In this document: positions 1-29,627 of the stretch, piece by piece
How the letters are laid out: each line of letters starts with the position of its first letter
How positions within the stretch are numbered: the stretch's first letter is position 1
Translations under genes and position numbers: made by a program
The notes under the pieces: model-generated
Databases searched by the model: none
What the model was told of the DNA's origin: nothing
What the model saw: only the letters and a program-made list of their open reading frames with translations
From: Ruminococcus albus 7 = DSM 20455
Lineage (GTDB): Bacteria > Bacillota > Clostridia > Oscillospirales > Ruminococcaceae
NCBI RefSeq assembly: GCF_000179635.2
Contig: NC_014833.1
Span: forward strand, 3,060,001-3,092,000
Reading direction: 5' to 3'
Length of the DNA: 32,000 nucleotides

Positions 1-173
1 AGGAACTGATACAGGAACGATGGTCGGAGAATTTTCGATATACTTTTCACGAACTTTTCTTAGGCGGTTGTAATACGTGTTTGGCTTGATCCCTTTTTCT
101 TTGCACCATTCCCGGATCGTCAGACCGCTTGCCTGCTGTGCTTTGATCTGCGCAGACCATTCCTGAAGCTGCA
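1..173 (-). CDS. IS66-type accessory (Orf1/TnpA-like) HTH protein, N-terminal part; continues beyond the window start
   Basis: The minus-strand ATG at 173 gives MQLQEWSAQIKAQQASGLTIREWCKEKGIKPNTYYNRLRKVREKYIENSPTIVPVSVP... The W-x7-SGLT-x3-WC-x3-GI-x4-YY-x2-RK pattern is what I associate with IS66 helper ORFs. The strong RBS (AAGGAGGT) instead precedes an out-of-frame ATG at 215 that opens only a 30-codon frame, so the start or frame is uncertain. Confidence 0.4.
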
Positions 174-341
174 TTTCTTTTTGATTGTTGTGATGGATGT
201 TGTTTTGTCCATACCTGTTACCTCCTTGTCTAATCGTCTCCAATGAACTCCATGGATCAATTTGGATTATTCAATTTACTTCATGGTGTTCCTTGGAGTT
301 TATTATACTTTATTAGACTTCGGTGGGGTAGGTGCTGGGGG

Positions 342-974
342 TTATACGCTTACTTTGTCTATTATACTATTTGCTATATCTCCGAGTTTATCTTTTATCT
401 CTTGTTTCATCATTCTATCATATTTATCCTTGTGTACAAACAAATATCCTTCTGCATAAAGCATATCACGGTTTTCTTCCAAAATCCTCTTTACCTGTTC
501 TTCCTCATTATCATCTGTGGTATTACCTGCATTATCTCTGCGGCTTTTAGTTACGTGTATCAATTGCAGAACTTCTTCAAATTCCCCGTGAACTATCATG
601 TCACTCACAATGCTGAGATATATGTCATTAAGCTCACCAAAATCATTATAGTCTTTGTGCCAAATATGACGAAGTCTTTTTACAGCTGCTTCACTTAATC
701 CCGTATATTCACAGATCATTTGAATATCAGGGCTTTGGGCTTTTGTTTCACCGAGCAAATATTCATAGCTAACACCGAAATATTTATGATAAGCTTGAAG
801 CTGTTCGATTGTAGGCGGGTTCTTGCTTTTTTCTATATCTGAAATGGTTGAGTGTACTATATTTAGAGCTTTTGCTAGTTCCTTTTGTGTCAATCCTTTA
901 TCTGTTCTCAACCTTTTATAGTTTTCACCATAGTTATTACAAAACTCAAAATTCGGCTGCGGTTTATTTGCCAT
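342..974 (-). CDS. XRE (Cro/CI) family HTH transcriptional repressor, phage-type
   Basis: 210-aa ORF. LTQKELAKALNIVHSTISDIEKSKNPPTIEQLQAYHKYFGVSYEYLLGE is a classic XRE helix-turn-helix. RBS AAGGGAG lies upstream of the ATG. The gene is divergent from a + strand early operon, which is the repressor position. Confidence 0.85.
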   Translation of the reverse strand: MANKPQPNFEFCNNYGENYKRLRTDKGLTQKELAKALNIVHSTISDIEKSKNPPTIEQLQAYHKYFGVSYEYLLGETKAQSPDIQMICEYTGLSEAAVKRLRHIWHKDYNDFGELNDIYLSIVSDMIVHGEFEEVLQLIHVTKSRRDNAGNTTDDNEEEQVKRILEENRDMLYAEGYLFVHKDKYDRMMKQEIKDKLGDIANSIIDKVSV

Positions 975-1047
975 AAAATAACACTCCCTTGATTATTCTA
1001 AATCGAATTCATGATTTTAGTATAATTTAAAACATTTATGGAATCTC

Positions 1048-1076
1048 TTGCATTTTGCTGAAAAACCATGTATACT
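1048..1076 (+). promoter_or_regulatory. SigA-type promoter for the early (+) operon
   Basis: TTGCAT (1048-1053), 17-nt spacer, TATACT (1071-1076), with TG directly 5' of the -10. It lies in the repressor/early-operon divergent region. Confidence 0.4.
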
Positions 1077-1181
1077 ATAGTTAGCGATTAAGATAAACGA
1101 TAAGTAAAAATTTAGATTAATGATAGTTTACCACATTTTTAATCGCTTGTCAAGCTGTTTTTTAGGATTGGGGGTGAAACT

Positions 1182-1337
1182 ATGACCAAGCAGGAGCGTG
1201 AGCAGGTTAAACAGGTGCAGCGCGAGTATTACCGAGAATGGCGTGCACGAAACAAGGACAGGGTCAAAGCTGCAAATCAGCGTTACTGGCTGAAAAAGGC
1301 TCAGGAAGCTAAGCAGGAGCAAAAAGAGGGGGAATAA
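1182..1337 (+). CDS. Small basic helical protein (51 aa), first gene of the early operon
   Basis: Not in the supplied track because it is under 60 aa. ATG 1182 is preceded by GGGGGTGA. Translation is MTKQEREQVKQVQREYYREWRARNKDRVKAANQRYWLKKAQEAKQEQKEGE, stop TAA 1335-1337. It resembles small conserved ORFs at the head of early operons in Clostridia mobile elements (recollection, unverified). Confidence 0.5.
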   Translation: MTKQEREQVKQVQREYYREWRARNKDRVKAANQRYWLKKAQEAKQEQKEGE

Positions 1338-1497
1338 TTTTTATGCATGAAAAACCGCCCGAGTGCTGCGAACACTCAGGCGGCGGGCAGGTTCAAGCCT
1401 GCTGAAAACATAAGCATTTGGTTGTAGTATGCTCCATTGGTATTATAACATATATGGAGCGGGTTTGCAAGAATATCTTGCAGAAAGGGTTTTTACT

Positions 1498-1695
1498 ATG
1501 GAAAATATTTATACAAGACCGCTTCCAAAAATGCGGACTATAAAAGAAACTGCGGCGGAGCTTAATGTACCCGTTTACGCACTTCGTCAGTGGGTAAAGT
1601 CGGGGGAAGTTCCTGCCGTGTATGCAGGTAGAAAAGCTCTGCTCAATCTCGATCTAGTCATTAAGTTCCTGAACGGGGGTGAGGATAATGACTGA
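1498..1695 (+). CDS. Excisionase/AlpA-type (MerR-like) HTH DNA-binding protein
   Basis: Track ORF 1429..1695 trimmed to ATG 1498 (RBS AGAAAGGG). MRTIKETAAELNVPVYALRQWVKSGEVPAVYAGRKALLNLDLVIKFL is the typical Xis-type HTH. Confidence 0.7.
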   Translation: MENIYTRPLPKMRTIKETAAELNVPVYALRQWVKSGEVPAVYAGRKALLNLDLVIKFLNGGEDND

Positions 1696-2005
1696 TATCG
1701 AAAAGGCGCTTATATCCATCATCGGGCGCGGTGAACACAACGCTGTCAAGCAGTCCGAGATCACGCGGCTGACTGGTTTGTCCGATCGGGATACCCGTGC
1801 GATCATCGAACGCTTGCGGGCAGGTGGTATGGTGATCTGTTCAAGCAATGCAGGGCGGTTCTTCCCTGAGAGCATCGAGGAACTTGACAGCTACATCAAA
1901 CGGATTCAGGCGAGTGTCCGAGCTGAATGTATAGCTCTTGCGCCTGCAAGGCGGCTTTTGAAAGAATGGCAGCGAGAGGGGGGCTATCAGAATGGCAGAA
2001 CGTAG
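1688..2005 (+). CDS. Winged-helix DNA-binding protein (replication-module accessory)
   Basis: ATG 1688 is preceded by GGGGGTGAGGA. SEITRLTGLSDRDTRAIIERLRAGGMVICS looks like a wHTH. The ORF overlaps both the upstream stop and the downstream start, which indicates an operon. Confidence 0.55.
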   Translation: MTDIEKALISIIGRGEHNAVKQSEITRLTGLSDRDTRAIIERLRAGGMVICSSNAGRFFPESIEELDSYIKRIQASVRAECIALAPARRLLKEWQREGGYQNGRT

Positions 2006-2567
2006 GATGTTCAGTAAAACTATTGTCGATAGCGATCTTTTTCTTGAAATGCCACTTTCAGCTCAGTGTTTGTACTTCCACTTGTCGATGAGGGCAGATG
2101 ATGACGGATTTGTTAACAGTGTGCGGAAGATAATGCGCGTTGTAAACGCTTCTGACGATGATTTTAGGATTCTGGTCTCTAAGGGCTTTGTTCTTTTGTT
2201 TGAGAGTGGGGTCATCGTCATCAAGCATTGGCGCGTGCATAATTGTATCCAAAAAGACCGATATCGCCCGACTATTTATAGTACTGAAAAATCTCGCTTG
2301 TCTACGGACGGAAACAAGGTTTATTCATTGGATACGACTTGTTTACAACATGAATCCAATCTGGATACGCAATGTATACAAAACGTTGCCGATATGGATA
2401 CTCAGGATAGTTTAGGCAAGATCAGTTTAGGCTATGCGAGAGAAGAACAGGAAAGACAAGGTGAGGGAAGGAGTTTCGAGGAAACCCAAGCAGCGCTGCA
2501 GGCAGAGCTTCATGCTCAATTATTAGAGTCAAAAAAACGCATAGATCAGATAACACAGCAGGCTTGA
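1992..2567 (+). CDS. Phage replisome organizer (DnaD-like), N-terminal domain family
   Basis: MAERRMFSKTIVDSDLFLEMPLSAQCLYFHLSMRADDDGFVNSVRKIMR...VIKHWRVHN matches the conserved N-terminus of phage replisome organizer proteins. RBS GAGGGGGG. Confidence 0.8.
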   Translation: MAERRMFSKTIVDSDLFLEMPLSAQCLYFHLSMRADDDGFVNSVRKIMRVVNASDDDFRILVSKGFVLLFESGVIVIKHWRVHNCIQKDRYRPTIYSTEKSRLSTDGNKVYSLDTTCLQHESNLDTQCIQNVADMDTQDSLGKISLGYAREEQERQGEGRSFEETQAALQAELHAQLLESKKRIDQITQQA

Positions 2568-2604
2568 CCTGCTGTGCTATCTAAATAATAAGGAGCTGAT
2601 TATA

Positions 2605-2952
2605 ATGATAGACATTGCAACCCTTAATCAACGGATAGAAATACAGCAGCTGACCTCTGATAAAGATGATAGAGGAAATCCCGAGCAGGTCTGGACAACG
2701 ATATATAAACGCTGGGCATCTGCAAATGTTACGGGTACAGCATTTTACGATGCTAGGCAGGAGCTTGTCAAAGCTCAGGTTGAATTTGTAACTAGGTATA
2801 ATAAGCAGCTTGCTATGATCGACACGACTAAATATCGCATCATCTGGAAAGGTGATATCTATCACATTCTGTTCGTTGACAATTACAAGGGATTGAATGA
2901 GCAGCTAAACATAACTGCGGTATGTTACGATCAAAACGATTCACTGAGGTAG
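2605..2952 (+). CDS. Phage head closure / head-tail joining protein (SPP1 gp16-like)
   Basis: 115 aa with RBS AAGGAG. LNQRIEIQQLTSDKDDRGNPEQVWTTIYKRWASANVTGTAFYDARQ...VEFVTRYNKQL...YRIIWKGDIYHI follows the head-tail joining protein pattern (RIxIQ, D-x-G, W, VWA, RYR, YxI). Confidence 0.7.
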   Translation: MIDIATLNQRIEIQQLTSDKDDRGNPEQVWTTIYKRWASANVTGTAFYDARQELVKAQVEFVTRYNKQLAMIDTTKYRIIWKGDIYHILFVDNYKGLNEQLNITAVCYDQNDSLR

Positions 2953-3104
2953 CAGCGGGCTTAATGCTCATGAGAAGATACACCGAGATCATAACGCTTG
3001 TCAGATGCACACAGAACAACGCTGTGAGCTTCTACGGGCTTATGACTGAATGTTTCTCTACAATGCTAACGTCACACAGAGCTTATATGTAGGCTTATAA
3101 TGAA

Positions 3105-3146
3105 AGCAGGCTTGCGGTGTTGAACCGCAGGTCTGCTTTTGCTTTA
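3105..3146. terminator. Bidirectional rho-independent terminator
   Basis: 14-bp stem AGCAGGCTTGCGGT (3105-3118) / ACCGCAGGTCTGCT (3124-3137) with two G-U pairs and a 5-nt loop. It is followed by TTTTGCTTTATT on + and TTTCATTAT on -. It sits between the convergent phage module and the RHH operon. Confidence 0.6.
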
Positions 3147-3539
3147 TTCGCTCATCATATAATCGAAGTGTCTGCGGTATCTTTTCGGTATGTTTATACC
3201 CACCATAAAGCCCAGCTCTGAAAGTGCATCTGATATCACTGCAAAGCCGTCTTTGTAGAAAGCTGTTATTCTACGCTGCTTGTCTGCTATGCCCTTGTAA
3301 TCAGGCGGACAAACGAAAGTCCAGTCAGCGCCGTCCTCATCAAGCACAATTCGGAAATACTTGTCAATATCCGTACTCGGGAAGCCTGCTTTTGCAAGCA
3401 GTATGTGATGTTCCATAGCTTCATCTATCTGGCTGACTATTGCTGTTTTACCGTCAAAGGATATAAGCACAAGCAAAGGTTCTTTCTCGGATATAGCTGT
3501 GTTAACATCGTTCTCTGAGGGGTATTTGATTATGGTCAT
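3144..3539 (-). CDS. Hypothetical 131-aa protein, translationally coupled to the RHH gene (candidate effector/toxin)
   Basis: The ATG overlaps the stop of the upstream RHH gene (ATGA at 3536-3539). The ORF ends at the bidirectional terminator. I recognise no PIN, RelE/ParE, Doc, HicA or Fic motif. Confidence 0.7.
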   Translation of the reverse strand: MTIIKYPSENDVNTAISEKEPLLVLISFDGKTAIVSQIDEAMEHHILLAKAGFPSTDIDKYFRIVLDEDGADWTFVCPPDYKGIADKQRRITAFYKDGFAVISDALSELGFMVGINIPKRYRRHFDYMMSE

Positions 3540-3727
3540 TCGGTGTCACCGTCCTTTTTTATATCTTCTTTCAAGAGGTCATTAATAAGACCGTTCAAAC
3601 TCTTGCCTTTATTTTCTGCGTGTTGCTTGTATTCTTCTTTCATGCCCTTTGGAAATGTGGCGGTAAATCTATCATATTTTTCAGCAACATATTTATTCTG
3701 CCGTTTGATCTGCTTTTGCTTGTCCAC
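3536..3727 (-). CDS. Ribbon-helix-helix (Arc/CopG/MetJ-type) DNA-binding protein, antitoxin-like
   Basis: 63 aa with a GTG start preceded by GAGGTGA. RFTATFPKGMKEEYKQHAENKGKSLNGLINDLLKEDI fits the beta-strand/helix/helix RHH layout. Confidence 0.7.
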   Translation of the reverse strand: MDKQKQIKRQNKYVAEKYDRFTATFPKGMKEEYKQHAENKGKSLNGLINDLLKEDIKKDGDTE

Positions 3728-3795
3728 ACTATCACCTCACACTTAAATATATTATACTCGATTTTGAGATATTACACAATACATATTATTTACAA

Positions 3796-3807
3796 TATTA
3801 CGTAATA
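3796..3807. promoter_or_regulatory. Palindromic operator candidate, copy 1 (TATTACGTAATA)
   Basis: Perfect 12-bp palindrome in the divergent intergenic region. The same core recurs at 3843-3856. Confidence 0.5.
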
Positions 3808-3837
3808 CTAAAAATGATACTTTGTAAACTAATAATA

Positions 3838-3866
3838 TTGACGTATTACGTAATACTATGTATAAT
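3838..3866 (+). promoter_or_regulatory. Strong SigA-type promoter for the 3918..4211 ORF
   Basis: TTGACG (3838-3843), 17-nt spacer, TATAAT (3861-3866). Confidence 0.6.
3843..3856. promoter_or_regulatory. Palindromic operator candidate, copy 2 (GTATTACGTAATAC)
   Basis: Perfect 14-bp palindrome lying exactly in the spacer of the 3838-3866 promoter. Confidence 0.5.
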
Positions 3867-3917
3867 AAAATACATTAAATCACTTTTGACCATAAGATCA
3901 TGAAAGGAAGAATCATA

Positions 3918-4211
3918 ATGAACAGTACTGAAATTGCAAACGCCTACCATACTTTGATTTCAGACAGCGAACAAGCCAAAGCGTTAATTGAATCAATATG
4001 GGTATTGGGGAAAATGGATAACACCACAGACTTTGACCTGATATTGCAACCGTCTGAACTAAGAAAACCCGAAAACGATAATGCTTACGGAATTATATGC
4101 AGCATCATACAAAATCATAACACAGTATCAGGCTTATTAAGTATCTTATCTGATAAAATAGAGGAAATAGAAAGAACTGCTGAAATACTGGATAACTTCA
4201 CAGATCACTAG
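3918..4211 (+). CDS. Hypothetical 97-aa protein
   Basis: Track ORF 3900..4211 trimmed to ATG 3918 (RBS AAAGGAAG, 8-nt spacing). It lies downstream of the consensus promoter. No motif recognised. Confidence 0.55.
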   Translation: MNSTEIANAYHTLISDSEQAKALIESIWVLGKMDNTTDFDLILQPSELRKPENDNAYGIICSIIQNHNTVSGLLSILSDKIEEIERTAEILDNFTDH

Positions 4212-4314
4212 CCCTTAGACCGCATATAACATAATTATTCCCCCTTGACATTAACAGTTTGTCGGGGGGATTTCTCTATATATGAAAGGAAAATGCAGGA
4301 AAAAAGCCCGCTTT

Positions 4315-4363
4315 TTTTGATTAATTTTGATTTTTTTTGATTTATTTTACTAGGAAATCAAAA
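4315..4363. repeat. Helically phased iteron-like repeats
   Basis: TTTTGATT starts at 4315, 4325 and 4335 (exact 10-bp period). An inverted copy AATCAAAA is at 4356-4363, and a further TTTGATTTT is at 4402-4410. Confidence 0.5.
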
Positions 4364-4541
4364 TTTTGTACTATTTTAAAACTAAGGGGTTATATCCCCC
4401 CTTTGATTTTAAGATAATTCACACGTGAGCAGGCAACCGTTGTTTTGACCTTTTGTGAAGTTTTCAGATACCCCCTGCCCCTATGCTTACCAAATTACTC
4501 TGATAGCTTGAAATACTATTGTACAATAAATCGGATTTGTT

Positions 4542-4563
4542 TTTGGTCATTATTTGGTCATTA
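4542..4563. repeat. Perfect tandem duplication, 2 x TTTGGTCATTA
   Basis: 4542-4552 equals 4553-4563. Candidate recombinase arm-type site. Confidence 0.45.
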
Positions 4564-4650
4564 TAAGTGTCAAAAAATCCAATAAATTGTACTGCAAAAC
4601 GCTAAACGTTATTTATCACTAACACGCATAAAACTGCGTAAAATAGGGCT

Positions 4651-4669
4651 TTGCTTAACATTGCTTAAC
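4651..4669. repeat. Direct repeat, 2 x TTGCTTAAC with 10-bp period
   Basis: 4651-4659 and 4661-4669, about 25 bp from the tRNA-like core. Candidate arm-type or core-proximal recombinase sites. Confidence 0.45.
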
Positions 4670-4691
4670 GTCACTTTTCAAATCTCCGAGT

Positions 4692-4715
4692 GTTCAAGTC
4701 CCGTTTGCCGCACCA
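4692..4715 (+). other. tRNA 3'-end fragment (att-type core duplicate), not an intact tRNA gene
   Basis: GTTCAAGTCCCGTTTGCCGCACCA reads as T-loop, 3' T-stem, 3' acceptor strand, discriminator A and CCA. The preceding bases (GAGTG) cannot form the 5' T-stem. No GCGGCAA 5' acceptor strand occurs in the roughly 100 nt upstream that I checked. Confidence 0.5.
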
Positions 4716-4721
4716 AAACAA

Positions 4722-4754
4722 AACCTCGTAAACACGGCGTTTGCGAGGTTTTTT
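4722..4754 (+). terminator. Rho-independent terminator directly after the tRNA fragment
   Basis: 12-bp stem AACCTCGTAAAC (4722-4733) / GTTTGCGAGGTT (4739-4750) with one G-U pair and loop ACGGC. It is followed by TTTT (4751-4754). Confidence 0.7.
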
Positions 4755-5005
4755 CATGTCCAAAATCCAGGCTTGGACTTTATTCTGGACCTTATTGGGG
4801 AAAAACGCTATCGGGAGATTGCGCAGATGAGCGGTCTCCCGAATTTTGTTTGGGTGTTAGCTTGCTTCTTTTTTCTCTATGATCTCCGCCATAATAATGT
4901 TGTCGGTAGTTGACTTTGCTGGTGGGAGATAGTATAATGATATCATGAGTGAGGGTATACAACGAAGAATTAATCTGTGCATGTGAAAGATAAGGAGAAC
5001 ATTTT

Positions 5006-5484
5006 ATGGAGTACAATTTTTATGTTGAAAAGCCTATCGACAGAGATGAATTACACCAAAGTATAATAGACATATTAAAAGAGTTATCAAATAAAAACAG
5101 GTCGATGATGACGACGATATTATTGCATGTTATCCTCTTCTAATATTTATTTATGGTCCTGAATATGGAGCAGATTGTGTTAAGGAAGAATATGGATTCG
5201 AATTGAGCTGGGAATTAAGAGTTGATGTCTATTCAAAAAATGAAACTGATAATGAAGTTGAGAATTTAAGGTTTTTCTTTAAGGTAATTAATTATTTGGT
5301 TGAAAAGTTTGATATTGACATCTTTGTCTTAGCGGATACGGGTGGTACTTGGATAATGAAAAGTCTGGGAGAAATAAAGGAATTACGAGATACAGATATA
5401 TTTAATTATCCTTTTGAACTGCTAAAGTGTGCAGCGGATTTTGAACGCTGTGAAGCAGAAAGATTTGGTATGAATATTTTATAA
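5006..5484 (+). pseudogene. Frameshifted gene for a ~159-aa cytoplasmic protein (immunity-protein-like, family not recognised)
   Basis: RBS AAGGAGAA plus ATG 5006 opens MEYNFYVEKPIDRDELHQSIIDILKELSNKN..., which stops at 5141-5143. A second frame is open from 5095 (..VDDDDDIIACYPLLIFIYGPEYGADCVKEEYGFELSWELRVDVYSK.. to 5484). One extra A in the A5 run 5093-5097 would fuse the two. Confidence 0.5.
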
Positions 5485-5487
5485 AAG

Positions 5488-6036
5488 TTATACTTCTTCA
5501 GATATGATGACTTTTGAACACGGATTTGTATTCACCATGTCAAGCCTTATCGCATACTCGAATATGGATGAGATGAAAGATAAATGATGTCGCATGGTCT
5601 TTTGCGACAGCGGTTTTCCGTTCCGCTTGTTAGCACCGGGCTTTGCAAGACTGTTTATGAATTTCTGAATGTCCCGAGCAGTTATCTTGTCGATGCGAAG
5701 ATGTCCAAGCGCAGGGATGACCCTGTCCGCAATGAGATGTTCAAGCTGAAGTGTAGTACTGCGGTGATTGAGTTCAGCATACTCAGTCGCCCACATCTCA
5801 ATTACTTTCTGGAACTTTACAGCCGATGTTACCTGACCATGTGCGCACTCCTCCTCGAACAGCACAGCCAAGCGCTGTACCTCTTTCTCTGCCTGTTTAG
5901 CAGACATATTTTCGGGTGGTTTCCATGTCCTGAACCGAACCATCTGCTTTCCGTGAACATCATAACCACAGTATGCACGAATGCGGTATGAAGTGACTTC
6001 GCCTTTCTTGTTTTTACGTTTTTCAATGTACGCCAT
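5488..6036 (-). pseudogene. Tyrosine recombinase/integrase, N-terminal half only (arm-binding and core-binding domains); catalytic domain missing
   Basis: MAYIEKRKNKKGEVTSYRIRAYCGYDVHGKQMVRFRTWKPPENMSAKQAEKEVQRLAVLFEEEC and ..RIDKITARDIQKFINSL..LSQKTMRHHLSFISSIFEYAIRLDMVNTNPCSKV are typical of Firmicute phage/ICE integrase N-termini. The ORF stops after 182 aa, 3 nt from the convergent stop of 5006..5484. No R/HxxR/Y catalytic region follows. Confidence 0.75.
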
Positions 6037-6040
6037 GCTA

Positions 6041-6069
6041 TTGTAATCAGGATAATTTTATGATATAAT
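6041..6069 (+). promoter_or_regulatory. SigA-type promoter with extended -10 for the DUF4132 gene
   Basis: TTGTAA (6041-6046), 17-nt spacer, TATAAT (6064-6069), with TG at 6061-6062 (TGaTATAAT). It starts 5 bp from the integrase-remnant ATG. Confidence 0.5.
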
Positions 6070-6127
6070 GATTTGTATCATAAATATATGAGATCTGTTA
6101 TCAATATACTGAAAGGAATTGATATAT

Positions 6128-9100
6128 ATGGATTTCCCGAAATTTGAATCGATACTGCTGCTATGTGCAGCTCCTAAAGAGGTAGCTGATGCTGCGGTTA
6201 AATGGCTGGATATTAACAAAGAGCGTGATTTTGGATTGCTCGAAAAGCTGTCCGAAATCGATAAAAGCAAAGTATTATTTTACAAAATCGATTTTTATGA
6301 ATATGTCAAACAAGAGATAATGCCTAACATCTGCGATGAACTATATCAGCGCTACATGATAATGGCATATAAGCTTCTTGACGCTTCTGCATACTGTCTT
6401 ATCAGTTTTTTACGTTATGAAGAATGGAAGCATATAAAAGAACTTTTCAGCAGAGAGATGGAAAATATATATGGTGATGAAGCGCCTGCGCGTATGTTGT
6501 CGGTTGACTGTGATGCATTTATAACATCAAGTCGTTATTTCAATATGCCTGATGATCCCGAACTTATACTTAAAGCAGCTGAGCTTACATCTGAGAAGCA
6601 CATGATAACAAAAGCATATCTTGCCGCAGCTGCCCTCGACCATATGTCTCTGCCGGATGACGGAAAACTTTCCAAAAAAGCAGAGATCGCAGTAACGATT
6701 ATTAAAAATGCTGTAAACAACAGTATAGAAAAAGATAACATATTTCTCCTTAATGCACTGGCAAATGCATCGTATTTTGATGAGGTTATAAAAGCGCATT
6801 TTGAAGAATATGCGGCAGCTAACGCCGAAGAACTCTGCAGCCTCATATCTCGTGGATCAACAGACATCGAGCGCGCAGCCGATGCATTGTTTGCTGTTGA
6901 AGGTACTTTCAGCAGAGATGTCCTATTCCAGTTGATGCGCTATGGTATAAATGAAAAACTGATGATCTCTGCTGCAAAAATGCAGACAGAGACTTTCAAA
7001 AAGCTTATTTTATGTAGAAAGAACACAACCGATCTTGTGAAAATGAATAGTGCACTGAAAACTGTAAGTCCTGATGAAGCTCTTAGTGATGACGCCATAA
7101 AAAATATATCCGATGACAAGATAATTGATGGAGTAGCTTCGTGCTACAAGGACGTTGAAAAAATAAAAGCATTCCTTAAAGATGAGATATCCTTTGATGA
7201 GGTATATCCGGCAATTAAAAGCACAAAACTGGAGTACACATCACCTTTGAAATCTAACTATATTCCAGTATACGGCATAGATGACTTTATACTGCGCTGT
7301 GTTGTCGTGCTGGGCGGAAGTGTGGGCAGATACAGTCATCATCTTAAAGAAATCACAGGTTTTTCAGATAACGATATACCGAGCCTGATAAACTGGTTTA
7401 ATTCACATGATGCAGATATGGCAAAAGCTCTGGATATATGCGGCGGGATAATTGATAATTGCTATTATCCCGAGGACCGAATAAAATTATTTGCTGATGC
7501 TTTATCGGAACGTACTGATGATATCGCAGCAGCAGATCTCTCAAAGTGTAATACAGTCGCAAAGTTCATTGCACTGAAACTTTTCGGGAATAATGAAACC
7601 AAATACCACAAAAGCATAATCGCCCTTGCAGGTGATACTTCAAAAGTTATACGTGATATCGTAATGGAAATAGTTATGCGTCACCCCGACTGGAACGATG
7701 ATATAAAAGTGCTGCTCACGTCAAAAAAATCATCGGCAAGAGAATTTGCTCTCAATGTGATCGAAAGACATGGTGCAAAGGCTTATATACAGGAGCTCAG
7801 AAAAGCTCTTGAAGCTGAAAAGACAGATAAACTGAAAGCTCGTATAGGCAGTATGCTCGCGGTGGTATCGGAAAACTTGGTCGTTGAAGATAAGGTCTCC
7901 GCCGAAGATACAGTAAAGGAAATGACCAAGGGCAAAAAGGCATCGAAGCTTGACTGGCTGTTCAAGGAGCCATTTTCACCTGTTCACATGAAAGATGGTT
8001 CGGTGGCAGATGAAAGCTATCTCAGGGCACTGATGCTCTGTTTTGCGAATTCGGTTGGTCTGAAAGATCCGAAAGCGGATATCATCACCGCTGAACTTGA
8101 TGAAAAAGATGTATGCAGATTGGCAAATGAGGTACTGGTGAGATGGCTTCAAACTTCTCCCGAAGTCAAATCTGAGTCGCTGGAGTTTTTTGAAGAGTTT
8201 ACGGGATTGGAAACTCTTGGTGCGCAGGCAAAATACAAATGGGTTCTGTACTTTGCGAGCGTATACGGCGGCAAAGAAGCACTTGAGGTGTTTGAAGATC
8301 TAATGTCCACATGGCCGCTGTGGCAGAAAGGCGCACTTGCAAAAGAGATACCCCATGCCATAGTTCTTAACGGCAGCAGCAGTTATATAATGTTGGTGGA
8401 AAAGATGTCCCGCAAACACAGATTCAACTCCATACGCAAAGCATCGGCAGATGCCCTGTTATGTGCTTCTGAGAAACTTGGTATAAGCAAAGAGGAATTT
8501 GCTGACCGCATGATCCCCGACCTTGATTTCGATAAAAATATGTGCAGGACTTTCGACTACGGCAGCAGACGGTTCGATGTATATATCACCCCTAAGCTGG
8601 AGCCCGAGATATACTGCGACGGCAAGAAACTGAAGACAATGCCCAAGCCAAGCGCAGATGAAGGAACTAAAGCAGCAGAGGTGTACAAGGAATTCACGGC
8701 GATGAAAAAGCTGATGAAGAATATCGTTGATGCGCAGAGAGTTCGTCTTGAAAACACTCTGCTTACCGCAAGAAACTGGACAGCGGAAAACTGGAAACAG
8801 ATATTTATGAAAAATCCCATAATGCACTGCTTTGCCATCGGTCTTATCTGGGGCGTATACAAGGACGGCAGGCTTGAAAGCAGTTTCAGATATCTTGATG
8901 ACGGCAGTTTGACAACTGTTGATGATGAGGAATTCACCTTAGCTGAGAACTCGGTCATCGGGCTTGTTCACCCTGTTGAACTCAGCGAAGAGGAATTGGA
9001 AAAATGGAAGCAGCAGCTGAAAGATTATGAGATAGCTCAGCCGTTTATACAGCTTGGCAGAGGTATATCCAGACCCACCGAAGAAGAAAAGGAGCAAAAC

Positions 9101-9433
9101 TTCATCGGACGTTTCAAGGGTAATGTTATCAAAAGCAGAGAATTTGTCTCGGCTATGAACAAGATCGGCTGGAGCAAGGGTAAAGTCGGAGACGGCGCAA
9201 TATTCGATGATTTTGTCAGAGAAGAGATTTTCAGCCGTAATGATGGTATCAGGGCGAGCCTTTTGCATTCGGGCATTCCCATTGAGGTATTCAGAGAAAA
9301 AGAGACTGACATCACGGTGGGTAAGCTGATATTTGAAACACTCCCGAAACAGGAATCCATAAAGATCGGTGATCTCAGCGACAGATATTTCAGCGAGATC
9401 ATGTACCAGCTGGGTAAAATATTTGCAGATTAA
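6128..9433 (+). CDS. Large helical-repeat protein with C-terminal DUF4132 (MolR/YehI-like) domain, 1101 aa
   Basis: ATG 6128 is preferred over the track start 6119 (RBS GAAAGGAA at 6111-6118). The C-terminal ~330 aa (DFDKNMCRTFDYGSRRFDVYITPKLEPEIYCDGKKLKTMPKP..QRVRLENTLLTARNWTAENWKQIFMKNPIMHCFAIGLIWGVY..VHPVELSEEELEKWKQQLKDYEIAQPFIQLGR) follows the DUF4132 pattern as I remember it. The N-terminal ~750 aa looks like HEAT-type helical repeats. Confidence 0.75.
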   Translation: MDFPKFESILLLCAAPKEVADAAVKWLDINKERDFGLLEKLSEIDKSKVLFYKIDFYEYVKQEIMPNICDELYQRYMIMAYKLLDASAYCLISFLRYEEWKHIKELFSREMENIYGDEAPARMLSVDCDAFITSSRYFNMPDDPELILKAAELTSEKHMITKAYLAAAALDHMSLPDDGKLSKKAEIAVTIIKNAVNNSIEKDNIFLLNALANASYFDEVIKAHFEEYAAANAEELCSLISRGSTDIERAADALFAVEGTFSRDVLFQLMRYGINEKLMISAAKMQTETFKKLILCRKNTTDLVKMNSALKTVSPDEALSDDAIKNISDDKIIDGVASCYKDVEKIKAFLKDEISFDEVYPAIKSTKLEYTSPLKSNYIPVYGIDDFILRCVVVLGGSVGRYSHHLKEITGFSDNDIPSLINWFNSHDADMAKALDICGGIIDNCYYPEDRIKLFADALSERTDDIAAADLSKCNTVAKFIALKLFGNNETKYHKSIIALAGDTSKVIRDIVMEIVMRHPDWNDDIKVLLTSKKSSAREFALNVIERHGAKAYIQELRKALEAEKTDKLKARIGSMLAVVSENLVVEDKVSAEDTVKEMTKGKKASKLDWLFKEPFSPVHMKDGSVADESYLRALMLCFANSVGLKDPKADIITAELDEKDVCRLANEVLVRWLQTSPEVKSESLEFFEEFTGLETLGAQAKYKWVLYFASVYGGKEALEVFEDLMSTWPLWQKGALAKEIPHAIVLNGSSSYIMLVEKMSRKHRFNSIRKASADALLCASEKLGISKEEFADRMIPDLDFDKNMCRTFDYGSRRFDVYITPKLEPEIYCDGKKLKTMPKPSADEGTKAAEVYKEFTAMKKLMKNIVDAQRVRLENTLLTARNWTAENWKQIFMKNPIMHCFAIGLIWGVYKDGRLESSFRYLDDGSLTTVDDEEFTLAENSVIGLVHPVELSEEELEKWKQQLKDYEIAQPFIQLGRGISRPTEEEKEQNFIGRFKGNVIKSREFVSAMNKIGWSKGKVGDGAIFDDFVREEIFSRNDGIRASLLHSGIPIEVFREKETDITVGKLIFETLPKQESIKIGDLSDRYFSEIMYQLGKIFAD

Positions 9434-28117: not shown

Positions 28118-29395
28118 TTACCTTACTGTTACAGTAACAGCGTTCTTGACGGACTCATAAAGTGTCCATTCACCGTTGATCTTAGCACCGAGAGCGACCT
28201 GATAGGACTTGCCGGGTGTAAGATTCTTAGGAGTCATATATGAGAAAGTATTGCCGGAAAGCGTACCGCCCTGAACTCTCCACTTGCCAGCCAGCTTAAC
28301 AGCTATAGCGTAGTTTGTAGCACCGCTTATCCTGTTCCAGCTGAATCTGATCTGATGATACTGGGAGTTGTACTCGATATTCGAGAACTTGGGGCTCACA
28401 GTAGGCTGAGGGTCGGGGGTGTAGTGGCTCTCATCGAATACCACGTTAGCATTGTTGAGGAATGTACAGCTGGGCTTTTCCAGGCTGTTCCACTTTGACT
28501 GACTTCCGTAGAAGGTTATTGTAGCAGAATTGTTTGTATCCAGGAAAGCAAATTCATGGATGTATGAAAGATCACCGGATACCTTCAGCTCTCTCAGGCT
28601 GGAGCAGTCACCAAGTGCCAGAGCCTCTATCCTTGTAACAGAGGGCAGATCAACAGATCTCAGGTTAGAGCACATATAGAATGTGTCATCGCAAAGCTCG
28701 GTAACACCTGCAGGGAATGTGACCGATGTTATAGCAGTGTTTCTGCTGAATGCACCGGGGCATACATACTTGACATTCGAGGGAACGGTAAAATCGCCCG
28801 AAGCCTTGCTTGCATCCAGAAGTGCGCCGTTTATTATAACGTATGTATTGCTGTTCTTCTGTGCGCTGAGCCATGGTGTAGAATCAAAACACTTCTCGTG
28901 TATCTTTACCAGCTTGCTTGGGAAGTTTACTGTATCAAGATTTGAGCAGTACTCAAATGCGTGCATCTCCAGAACTTCAAGACTGCTTGGCAGGGTCACA
29001 GAAGTAAGACTGCCGCAGAAGCCGAAAGAATAGTATCCTATAGTCTTTATAGACGAAGGGAATGTTATGCTAGTCAGGTTGCTGCAGAACTGGAAGCTGT
29101 TGCGTGCAACGGCTGTAACAGGCACACCGTTAACTGATGAGGGTATCACCAGTGATGATGCAGATGTATTGCCCGAAGAAAAACCGCTTACCTCAGCATG
29201 ATCGGAATACTTATTGAATTTCAGTCCGTTATACTCAACGGTGGTGTAATTCATATCAGCGTCTTCATAAGCATATGCAGTTATTGCAGCAGGCTGAACA
29301 AAACTGTTCTGCACTGAAGGAGCAGCAGCAAATGTCAGCATAAGTGCAGCTGTCAGTGCTGTTACCTTTAACATTTTTCCACTAGTATTTTTCAT
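28118..29395 (-). CDS. BspA-type leucine-rich-repeat (LRR_5) surface protein with a C-terminal Fn3-like module
   Basis: The signal peptide is MLKVTALTAALMLTFAAAPS. The repeats are NSFQFCSNLTSITFPSSIKTIGYYSFGFCGSLTSVTLPSSLEVLEMHAFEYCSNLDTVNFPSKL. RBS GGGAGGAAAG. Confidence 0.8.
   Translation of the reverse strand: MKNTSGKMLKVTALTAALMLTFAAAPSVQNSFVQPAAITAYAYEDADMNYTTVEYNGLKFNKYSDHAEVSGFSSGNTSASSLVIPSSVNGVPVTAVARNSFQFCSNLTSITFPSSIKTIGYYSFGFCGSLTSVTLPSSLEVLEMHAFEYCSNLDTVNFPSKLVKIHEKCFDSTPWLSAQKNSNTYVIINGALLDASKASGDFTVPSNVKYVCPGAFSRNTAITSVTFPAGVTELCDDTFYMCSNLRSVDLPSVTRIEALALGDCSSLRELKVSGDLSYIHEFAFLDTNNSATITFYGSQSKWNSLEKPSCTFLNNANVVFDESHYTPDPQPTVSPKFSNIEYNSQYHQIRFSWNRISGATNYAIAVKLAGKWRVQGGTLSGNTFSYMTPKNLTPGKSYQVALGAKINGEWTLYESVKNAVTVTVR
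28121..28396 (-). repeat. Fn3-like module, copy in the LRR protein (C-terminal)
   Basis: SPKFSNIEYNSQYHQIRFSWNRISGATNYAIAVKLAGKWRVQGGTLSGNTFSYMTPKNLTPGKSYQVALGAKINGEWTLYESVKNAVTVTVR. Confidence 0.7.
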
Positions 29396-29627
29396 ATCAT
29401 CTTTCCTCCCGATACGGATAACGTTTCTTTGAACATATCACACAACAGTTTTCATTTGATTTGATTAAATATGTTTCATCCGCATAAAAGCATTATAGCA
29501 TATAATACGTAATTAATCTTTATGATTATATGAATGGGCAAGTAATTTTTTTATTTTTTTGTTTATTACACAATACATATTATTTTAAGGCTGTCCCTTA
29601 ATCCCCCGTTTTTATGTATCATGCCCC

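Follow-up and report, generated by a model that had tools for sequence, protein, structure and literature searches.

The 32,000-nucleotide stretch of Ruminococcus albus 7 DNA analyzed here (NC_014833.1, positions 3,060,001 to 3,092,000; hereafter the window) carries a cassette of three small genes. These are RHH63 (3536..3727, minus strand), which starts with GTG and encodes a 63-aa Arc-family ribbon-helix-helix (RHH) protein predicted to be a repressor; p131 (3144..3539, minus strand), an open reading frame (ORF) downstream of it that encodes a 131-aa cargo protein of an orphan family; and p97 (3918..4211, plus strand), which encodes a 97-aa acidic orphan and is divergent from the other two. 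On balance, we favor the view that these genes form an accessory unit at a satellite cargo hotspot, RHH-autoregulated and bidirectional, and that p131 is a candidate conflict or defense protein. The original prediction for this DNA had taken the RHH63–p131 pair for the architecture of a type II toxin–antitoxin (TA) module. That claim did not hold up: RHH63 has no neutralizing tail, p131 matches no toxin family and often stands alone, and the partners are discordant. Judged by sequence comparison, the cassette is outside every TA family tested.

The regulator and its control region

RHH63 had been called a ribbon-helix-helix protein from its sequence, and its Pfam score bears this out. The protein matched the Arc family (PF03869) over residues 17 to 60 with 24.9 bits, above the gathering cutoff of 20.4. 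It also matched phrog_13890 and Arc-like PHROGs and gave weak PDB matches, aligning to residues 6 to 49 of P22 Arc and to AmrZ. Indeed, RHH63 aligns end-to-end with P22 Arc, which has 53 aa. A basic 16-residue arm precedes the β-strand and three residues follow helix B; since the fold reaches residue 60 of 63, there is no toxin-neutralizing extension. These comparisons show RHH63 to be a bare Arc-type repressor by sequence, repression itself being predicted. The RHH proteins of the loci compared form a single family, 33 to 83% identical, with the more distant members at 33 to 57%, and a search of viral contigs with RHH63 gave no match. The GTG start lies six bases downstream of the Shine–Dalgarno sequence GAGGTGA (3732–3738), and an 81%-identical homolog begins with ATG (MDKQKQ) at the same codon. 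The predicted coupling to the 131-aa gene was also found, with the ATGA at 3536–3539 forming the overlap of the RHH63 stop region and the p131 start, an arrangement of translational coupling. Directly 3′ of the p131 stop, a hairpin (3101..3141, minus strand) forms a terminator-like site (RNA fold −17.8 kcal/mol, z = −3.0) and is the likely terminator of the RHH–p131 operon.

The region between RHH63 and p97 contains three boxes. Box O1, TATTACGTAATA at 3796..3807, is the central operator candidate between both promoters. Box O2 has the same sequence at 3844..3855 and lies within a perfect 14-nt palindrome, GTATTACGTAATAC (3843–3856), and box O3, TATTACACAATA at 3770..3781, is a degenerate palindrome. 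Two exact copies of TATTACGTAATA, against 0.00 expected from 100 dinucleotide shuffles, agree with the palindrome originally reported to occur twice, and with the degenerate O3 the boxes number three in all. The p97 promoter (TTGACG-17-TATAAT, 3838..3866, plus strand; TTGACG at 3838–3843, TATAAT at 3861–3866) is a near-consensus sigma-70-type site, with 11 of 12 positions matching, and was the top promoter-like site in 3000–4500. Its 17-nt spacer does hold the second palindrome, as had been claimed, with box O2 occupying the first 12 nt. For RHH63 we infer a promoter at 3751..3779 (minus strand), composed of a −35 TTGTGT (3779..3774), a 17-nt spacer and a −10 TATAAT (3756..3751). This promoter was absent from the program promoter scan because its −35 matches at only three of six positions. 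Box O3 overlaps that −35 and is proposed as the putative autoregulation site.

We aligned 13 control regions, defined as the 200 nt upstream of the RHH gene in the window and in 12 relatives (L001 and L061–L071; 79 to 98% identical). The geometry of the RHH promoter (TTGTGT or TTGCGT, 17 nt, TATAAT) is kept in all 13, as are box O3 at −54/−50 and box O1 at about −80. Box O2 is present at −128/−124 in 12, the contig of L061 beginning too near the gene to show the distal box. The box consensus across the aligned regions is TATT[AG][CT]G[CT]AATA, and the outer boxes, O2 and O3, are always 74 bp apart, ~7 helical turns. While the box positions hold, the DNA separating the boxes has diverged widely between loci of the window type and those of the L062 type, and the distal box always lies inside the spacer of a divergent TTGACG-17-TATAAT promoter, L062-type loci included. 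The motif occurs in 12 of 82 fetched loci, all with an RHH63-like gene and in the control region only, and in none of the other 70. Two loci with more distant RHHs (L009 and L023) carry another palindrome, ACTATTCACGTGAATAGT, plus two partial copies at equivalent places, and L060 has ATATTGNNNNCAATAT (ATATTG-N4-CAATAT) twice, one copy being inside the promoter spacer of its p97 homolog. The comparative evidence is good that the three boxes are the RHH63 operators, with binding predicted. The proposal that the palindromes are RHH operators is thus strengthened: the boxes are conserved in position, found only beside RHH63-like genes, and change with divergent RHHs.

An exact 22-nt copy of the O3 region (TATTACACAATACATATTATTT, 3770–3791) is also present at 29564–29585, 26 kb away (E = 3.7e-7 in the window). 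The copy is intergenic, upstream of a BspA-type leucine-rich repeat gene (28118–29395, minus strand), and 50 nt away, at 29503–29514, is a box-like TAATACGTAATT. The copy may mark a further target of RHH63 or be left over from another cassette.

The slot behind the regulator and the p131 family

Comparison with related loci shows that the gene position behind the RHH can be exchanged: it is taken by p131 here and, in the closest RHH relatives, by AbiD or a zeta-like P-loop kinase. Specifically, an intact p131 is found in none of 11 metagenome loci whose RHH is 79 to 85% identical to RHH63, L061 keeping a remnant only. AbiD (313 aa) lies downstream in six of these loci (Pfam Abi_2, 3.9e-49; PADLOC AbiD, 1.5e-93), a Zeta_toxin/AAA_33-type P-loop protein lies directly 3′ of the RHH in L061 alone, and the remaining loci have neither gene downstream. 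In L060, a p97 homolog and an RHH are followed, behind the RHH, by an N-terminal fragment of Abi_2. L061 (355–1016) encodes an RHH 81% identical to RHH63 and then the zeta-like kinase, whose stop overlaps (ATGA) a 16-codon p131-like remnant, MIDMIKYPMRCKHSNT; after the remnant comes the start of the equivalent of the 3101..3141 hairpin. L061 records a p131 deletion from an RHH–zeta–p131 operon. The slot shared with AbiD in sister islands supports the defense or moron position that had been suggested for the cassette.

Gene order across genomes likewise shows p131 to be a portable, stand-alone gene that needs no partner. The original prediction had raised the question of whether p131 homologs always follow an RHH gene, and the answer is no: an RHH lies directly upstream in ~6 of 36 species-level genome loci. 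The closest p131 relatives (89 to 93% identical, L002–L004) are without an RHH, their orders being PD-Lambda-1–p131–integrase in L002 and L003 and metG–tRNA-Arg–p131 in L004, and the nearest RHH relatives are without an intact p131, so that the two gene histories are discordant. R. albus AR67, whose L001 encodes an identical p131, carries at least two copies (L001 and L004). In 7 of the 36 species-level loci, p131 lies between fabH and fabK with gaps of 7 to 54 nt (seven GTDB species, plus metagenome contigs). It is also alone in metG–tRNA-Arg–p131 (L004, L005) and rqcH–p131–valS, 3′ of an HtrA-like protease, and in a second fab arrangement. The fabH–fabK copies are 72 to 78% identical (L013, L014, L016, L017, L019, L020, L026 and L076–L078), and the one in L076 lies behind a non-coding gap of 300 nt that contains hairpins. 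The fabH–p131–fabK genomes have no acpP between fabH and fabK; a replacement of acpP by p131 in the fab operon was considered, and no ACP-like ORF or motif was found.

Further copies of p131 adjoin lysogeny genes. A cI-like XRE repressor, p131 and an integrase follow one another in L008 and L028, XRE–p131 stands at the contig end of the IMG/VR phage L037, and the prophage operon of L052 reads XRE–ParE TA–DUF2442–p131–serine recombinase and has an Abi_alpha gene in its vicinity. Recombinases make up 10 of the 28 downstream p131 neighbors examined. The idea that the 3′ end of p131 is an integration target of the neighboring integrases was rejected because XRE repressor, p131 and integrase form one module in L008, L028 and L052. 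Among defense genes, p131 directly follows PD-Lambda-1/SNIPE nucleases (2e-150) in two unrelated settings, adjoins a GajA/OLD-like nuclease, and has AbiD among its neighbors in L072; in a fecal phage record it is convergent with an AbiD-like gene, beside an integrase. The PD-Lambda-1/SNIPE genes (DUF4041 plus T5orf172; 427 and 546 aa) lie 22 to 58 nt 5′ of p131 in L002, L003 and L046–L051, with unrelated flanks, and two more orphan ORFs (137 and 63 aa) are found downstream in L046–L051. PD-Lambda-1/SNIPE and p131 could be a recurrent gene pair rather than a chance adjacency.

A family of zeta-like kinases (52 to 82% mutual identity) adjoins p131 in three independent locus types. The order is RHH–p131–zeta-like kinase in L010 (16-nt gap) and L011/L040–42/45, and zeta-like–p131 in L036; at one chromosomal site the zeta gene is present or absent (L040 vs. 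L043) with p131 identical. The kinase (~185 aa) also occurs without p131, as XRE–zeta–int in L081 and XRE–ImmA–zeta–lipoprotein–int in L082. In these two IMG/VR temperate phages no obvious antitoxin accompanies it. One would not expect this of a "zeta toxin", and it points to a moron expressed in lysogeny or to a defense role for the kinase.

Homologs of p131 numbered 1857 by search and 1910 by a profile search of a 5.8-billion-protein set (90% clustering), but form only 127 clusters at 50% identity. Every homolog is "hypothetical", and with few exceptions they are ~130-aa stand-alone proteins encoded by Ruminococcus and Oscillospiraceae; the profile search reached no annotated relative. The 131-aa protein had been described as free of toxin motifs, and in keeping with this it found no family match in four hidden Markov model (HMM) libraries: there was none in Pfam, PHROG or NCBIfam, and in PADLOC-DB 2.0 only a 13.6-bit match to a CARF model. 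Single-sequence and profile searches against PDB sequences also gave no match. The AF2 (AlphaFold2) model of p131 (pLDDT 93.5, pTM 0.86) is α/β: helices flank a five-stranded sheet, and there are a long helix at the C-terminus and a basic tail (IPKRYRRH). Foldseek searches with this model against PDB and BFVD gave no match at E ≤ 0.001, leaving p131 with no recognizable toxin fold or family in the HMM libraries, PDB or BFVD. Foldseek matches to ADF-H/gelsolin-like and "polyvalent protein" folds were dismissed as noise (TM 0.3–0.45, E > 0.3). Only W73, P78, Y81, D97 and G98 are near-invariant among 39 diverse members, and p131 is therefore without a catalytic signature; nor does it have a HEXXH or other protease motif or an M78 match. 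Three apparent fusions, P0121 (4×HTH plus p131), P0125 (ABC plus p131) and P0208 (KH plus p131), were rejected as read-through or chimeric calls because they either keep the Met start of p131 at an internal position or lack strand 1.

The divergent gene, p97, most likely begins at the ATG at 3918, where it had been placed, and not at 3900, given the AAGGAAG Shine–Dalgarno sequence and the 72%-identical P0249, which begins MNNTEIAN. Comparison with that homolog, from L060, gives a dN/dS of 0.21, indicating purifying selection and thus a real gene. Only two homologs were found among 5.8 billion proteins, similarity to the positionally equivalent ORFs of L007 and L062 is marginal at most, and the protein (pI 4.3) matched nothing in the Pfam, PHROGs, NCBIfam or PADLOC HMM libraries. 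Its AF2 model is all-helical and of low confidence (pLDDT 50.6), too poor for a fold search. The structural check that had been advised for both proteins yielded a confident p131 model with no fold relative in PDB or BFVD and no usable model of p97. A hairpin, CCCCCUUGACA...UGUCGGGGGG followed by AUUUCUCU (4239..4270, plus strand), is by RNA fold the likely p97 terminator, and the L060 homolog is trailed by an equivalent hairpin with other stem bases (z = −4.0). We suggest, as one of our least certain assignments, that p97 may be a second, lineage-specific cargo under the RHH63 switch. In L062 (3200–3380, minus strand), and also in L063–L071, the divergent, putatively operator-controlled promoter drives not p97 but a 37-aa hydrophobic peptide, LDKKIKKLVKLVQQLNKLMIEIIGLIGYILIIKDLLK. 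In the AbiD-bearing sister cassettes the RHH could control either a small membrane toxin or a holin-like peptide.

The island that carries the cassette

A 24-nt tRNA end is repeated at 4692–4715, which makes the cassette the final cargo ahead of the att repeat in a small, satellite-like island at tRNA-Leu. This att core (plus strand) matches the 3′ end of tRNA-Leu(gag) exactly, with 0 matches expected by chance, and it confirms the suggested att-proximal position of the cassette between a phage-like module and its att end. In L001 the att core is the tRNA-Leu 3′ end and is repeated at the far end of the island. The window and L001 share 92% DNA identity over 2497–4716, and homology stops at 4716. 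The L001 island is ~6 kb (~360–6380), its copy of the module being flanked by an integrase and tRNA-Leu(gag); the window copy (1–4715) runs off the left edge, its integrase end lying left of the window. The island order is integrase and XRE, then a xis-like gene, p108, a DnaD-like gene and a head-completion gene, then the leftward RHH–p131 pair and the rightward p97, and finally att.

The cI-like XRE repressor (342–974, minus strand) thus sits at the opposite island end from the cassette. Upstream of the cassette are genes for an HTH_17 excisionase-like protein, a phrog_2113 protein, the DnaD-like loader (phrog_8489, 2e-69) and the phage head-completion protein Phage_HCP (PF05521, 2e-18). Of the satellite features, XRE, HTH_17, the DnaD-like loader and Phage_HCP are in the window, and the integrase and att repeats were read in the sister island L001. 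For an element of a Gram-positive host, the satellite-like L001 island would be unusually small, with helper dependence putative. Sister islands L062–L068 have instead a sigma-70-like gene and a HIRAN-domain gene.

Beyond the att core lies a truncated tyrosine integrase N-terminus (5488–6036, minus strand) of 182 aa that has only SAM-like domains. It shares 45% identity with the integrase of the L001 island, and an orphan 93-aa ORF (5203–5484, plus strand) adjoins it. The fragment looks like an older island remnant at the same tRNA-Leu site, that is, a tandem occupancy. Directly past this remnant, 6119–9433 (plus strand) encodes a 1104-aa protein with a C-terminal DUF4132 as its sole family match (3.9e-50), and the rest of the window has dockerin-bearing glycoside hydrolases.

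The proposed circuit, its rivals and related systems

In the circuit that we propose, RHH63 dimers would bind the three boxes. Bound to O2 in the spacer, RHH63 would occlude the strong p97 promoter, and bound to O3 at the −35 it would occlude its own weaker promoter, with the central box O1 aiding cooperativity. In an established island, tight negative feedback would keep the steady-state levels of RHH, p131 and p97 low; entry of the island into an RHH-free cell would give a transient burst of all three. P22 Arc in immI provides such negative feedback, limiting payload expression after entry (PMC11016777). For p131 we infer, again with the least certainty, a non-enzymatic binding protein in conflict between phages or other mobile genetic elements (MGEs) and the host, which might act in defense, exclusion or counter-defense. 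Grounds for this role are the slot shared with AbiD, the lysogeny-module and defense neighborhoods, and the portable single-gene behavior.

Several observations weigh against this reading of the cassette. The operator and promoter assignments are computational, and the neighborhood and slot-sharing arguments are guilt by association across ~25 distinct locus types rather than an enrichment statistic. Many p131 copies lie inside housekeeping operons, which is unusual for defense genes and could mean a cellular role. In addition, p131 matches no PADLOC 2.0 defense model and is rare in catalogued phage genomes, with 1 of 50,697 records and one IMG/VR contig found by the patterns used. Finally, the ATGA coupling of RHH and p131 recurs in several lineages (L001, L007, L010 and others), which hints at a closer functional tie than that of a regulator plus arbitrary cargo.

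One rival reading is a type II TA or abortive-infection pair, in which RHH63 would serve as the antitoxin and repress its own gene, and p131 would be a novel toxin set free by phage attack. The antitoxin-first bicistronic order with its ATGA overlap, seen again in L001, L007, L010 and L040, and the palindromic operator candidates are consistent with such a pair, and no known family contradicts a toxin role for p131. We nonetheless regard it as very improbable, because RHH63 ends three residues past the Arc fold with no neutralizing domain, p131 is without a catalytic signature, and the same RHH family precedes AbiD and zeta-like genes. Moreover, a toxin gene should not be stably kept without its antitoxin gene, yet p131 is alone in at least five chromosomal contexts, core ones among them, and the tightest gaps there (7 to 81 nt, in L013-type fabH–p131–fabK and in rqcH–p131–valS) are too short for an antitoxin gene. 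Those lone copies would be at home if p131 were a cellular housekeeping or accessory-metabolic protein, linked to lipid synthesis or translation and acquired by mobile elements: fabH–p131–fabK is found in seven GTDB species and metagenome contigs, and p131 also occurs in rqcH–p131–valS, in metG–tRNA-Arg–p131 and 3′ of htrA. However, these core contexts are mutually unrelated, and into each of them p131 alone is inserted. Moreover, its family, with only 127 clusters at 50% identity, does not extend beyond Oscillospiraceae, R. albus AR67 has two or more copies, and MGE, integrase and defense neighbors are frequent. A housekeeping origin therefore seems improbable to us.

The zeta-like neighbors raise a different alternative, to which we give the most weight among the rivals while holding it unlikely. 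In it, p131 would be an antitoxin or immunity protein, epsilon-like in an omega–epsilon–zeta-type operon, with its orphan copies serving anti-addiction or counter-defense. The RHH–p131–zeta order of L010 and L011/L040–42/45, the zeta–p131 order of L036, and a zeta gene that varies at one site while p131 stays identical (L040 vs. L043) all fit, as does a p131 that is small, acidic and non-enzymatic; the regulator of omega–epsilon–zeta is a separate RHH (PMC10532202). Zeta-like genes that occur without an intact p131 (L081, L082, L061) weaken the case for p131 as an obligate antitoxin of the kinase, plasmid zeta homologs are preceded by unrelated small genes, and the window has no zeta-like gene. 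Since the kinase occupies the repressor–integrase slot without p131 and L061 keeps only a remnant, the adjacency may reflect only two morons sharing hotspots. We place behind this, and also consider unlikely, a role for p131 as an accessory of the lysis–lysogeny or induction switch, an anti-repressor or repressor partner in the slot of ImmA or P22 Ant. The XRE–p131–integrase order of L008 and L028 and the XRE–p131 contig end of L037 speak for it, and the Arc-family first gene and divergent promoter resemble mnt | arc–ant (PMC11016777). But p131 has no protease motif, HEXXH included, a ParE TA pair and DUF2442 separate it from the repressor in L052, the lone core-operon copies have no repressor to act on, and the cI-like XRE of the window sits at the other island end.

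The regulator itself is an ordinary Arc family member, and the circuit is closest to the logic of P22 mnt | arc–ant and of Acr–Aca and C-protein systems. Like the cassette, P22 immI has an Arc-family RHH of ~55 to 60 aa first in the operon with the payload after it (PMC11016777), an operator in or overlapping the promoter, and a divergent promoter controlled from the same short region. The cassette differs from it in a payload that is no Ant homolog, in p97 or a 37-aa peptide in place of Mnt as the divergent product, in three palindromic boxes of 12 bp where immI has a single operator of 21 bp, and in its Firmicute satellite-like island. In Acr–Aca and restriction–modification (R-M) C-protein circuits, a small repressor acts on inverted repeats in the promoter, and a burst follows entry into a naive cell. 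The cassette would be analogous in having a promoter with a small dedicated repressor and inverted repeats; unlike those circuits, it has its regulator as the first gene, not the last, and its cargo is no known Acr or R-M gene.

The defense or cargo hotspots of satellites and prophages (P4/P2, phage-inducible chromosomal islands [PICIs]; PMC13586616 for the general concept) offer a similar variable slot, fixed in position near the element end, in which anti-phage genes are swapped. Here, in contrast, the slot has its own RHH switch with conserved operator candidates, the island is much smaller than classical PICIs, and the window occupant, p131, is without known defense function. L010 and L011/L040 resemble omega–epsilon–zeta of pSM19035 in having a lone RHH, a small non-DNA-binding protein and then a Zeta_toxin-family kinase (PMC10532202). 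The window, however, has no zeta and hence no operon of RHH, antitoxin and Zeta_toxin-family kinase, p131 is unrelated to epsilon, and omega binds heptad repeats, not palindromes. Like the middle gene of ImmR–ImmA–Int lysogeny modules in Firmicute phages and ICEs, p131 takes the ImmA position in L008 and L028 and follows XRE in L037, a true ImmA being present in L082; unlike ImmA, it has no metalloprotease motif, and its partner in the window is an RHH, at the island end opposite the XRE.

With the cassette read as an RHH-autoregulated accessory unit, what had been a possible TA call becomes a defined regulatory cassette of one predicted repressor, three mapped boxes and two promoters, and its relatives present it as a movable control unit whose cargo genes can be exchanged, a genuine Abi gene among them. 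A bolder extension, possible but tentative, is that p131 is the first member of a new family of phage-conflict effectors that act as single proteins without enzymatic activity and have a fold unlike any in PDB. Satellites and prophages of Oscillospiraceae in gut and rumen would deliver it, housekeeping operons would have domesticated it time and again, and the three-box RHH switch would be a plug-in controller. If that were true, any cargo (p131, AbiD, the zeta-like kinase, p97 or the 37-aa membrane peptide) would receive an entry burst and then tight repression. The island also offers a natural case of cargo swapping in a very small satellite-like element. As for p131, its genomic behavior, with copies in lysogeny modules, satellite slots, defense neighborhoods and core-operon insertions, is typical of phage–host conflict genes, and as an abundant orphan family (~1,900 members) of the poorly studied fiber-degrading Ruminococcus and Oscillospiraceae it is a reasonable candidate for defense discovery.

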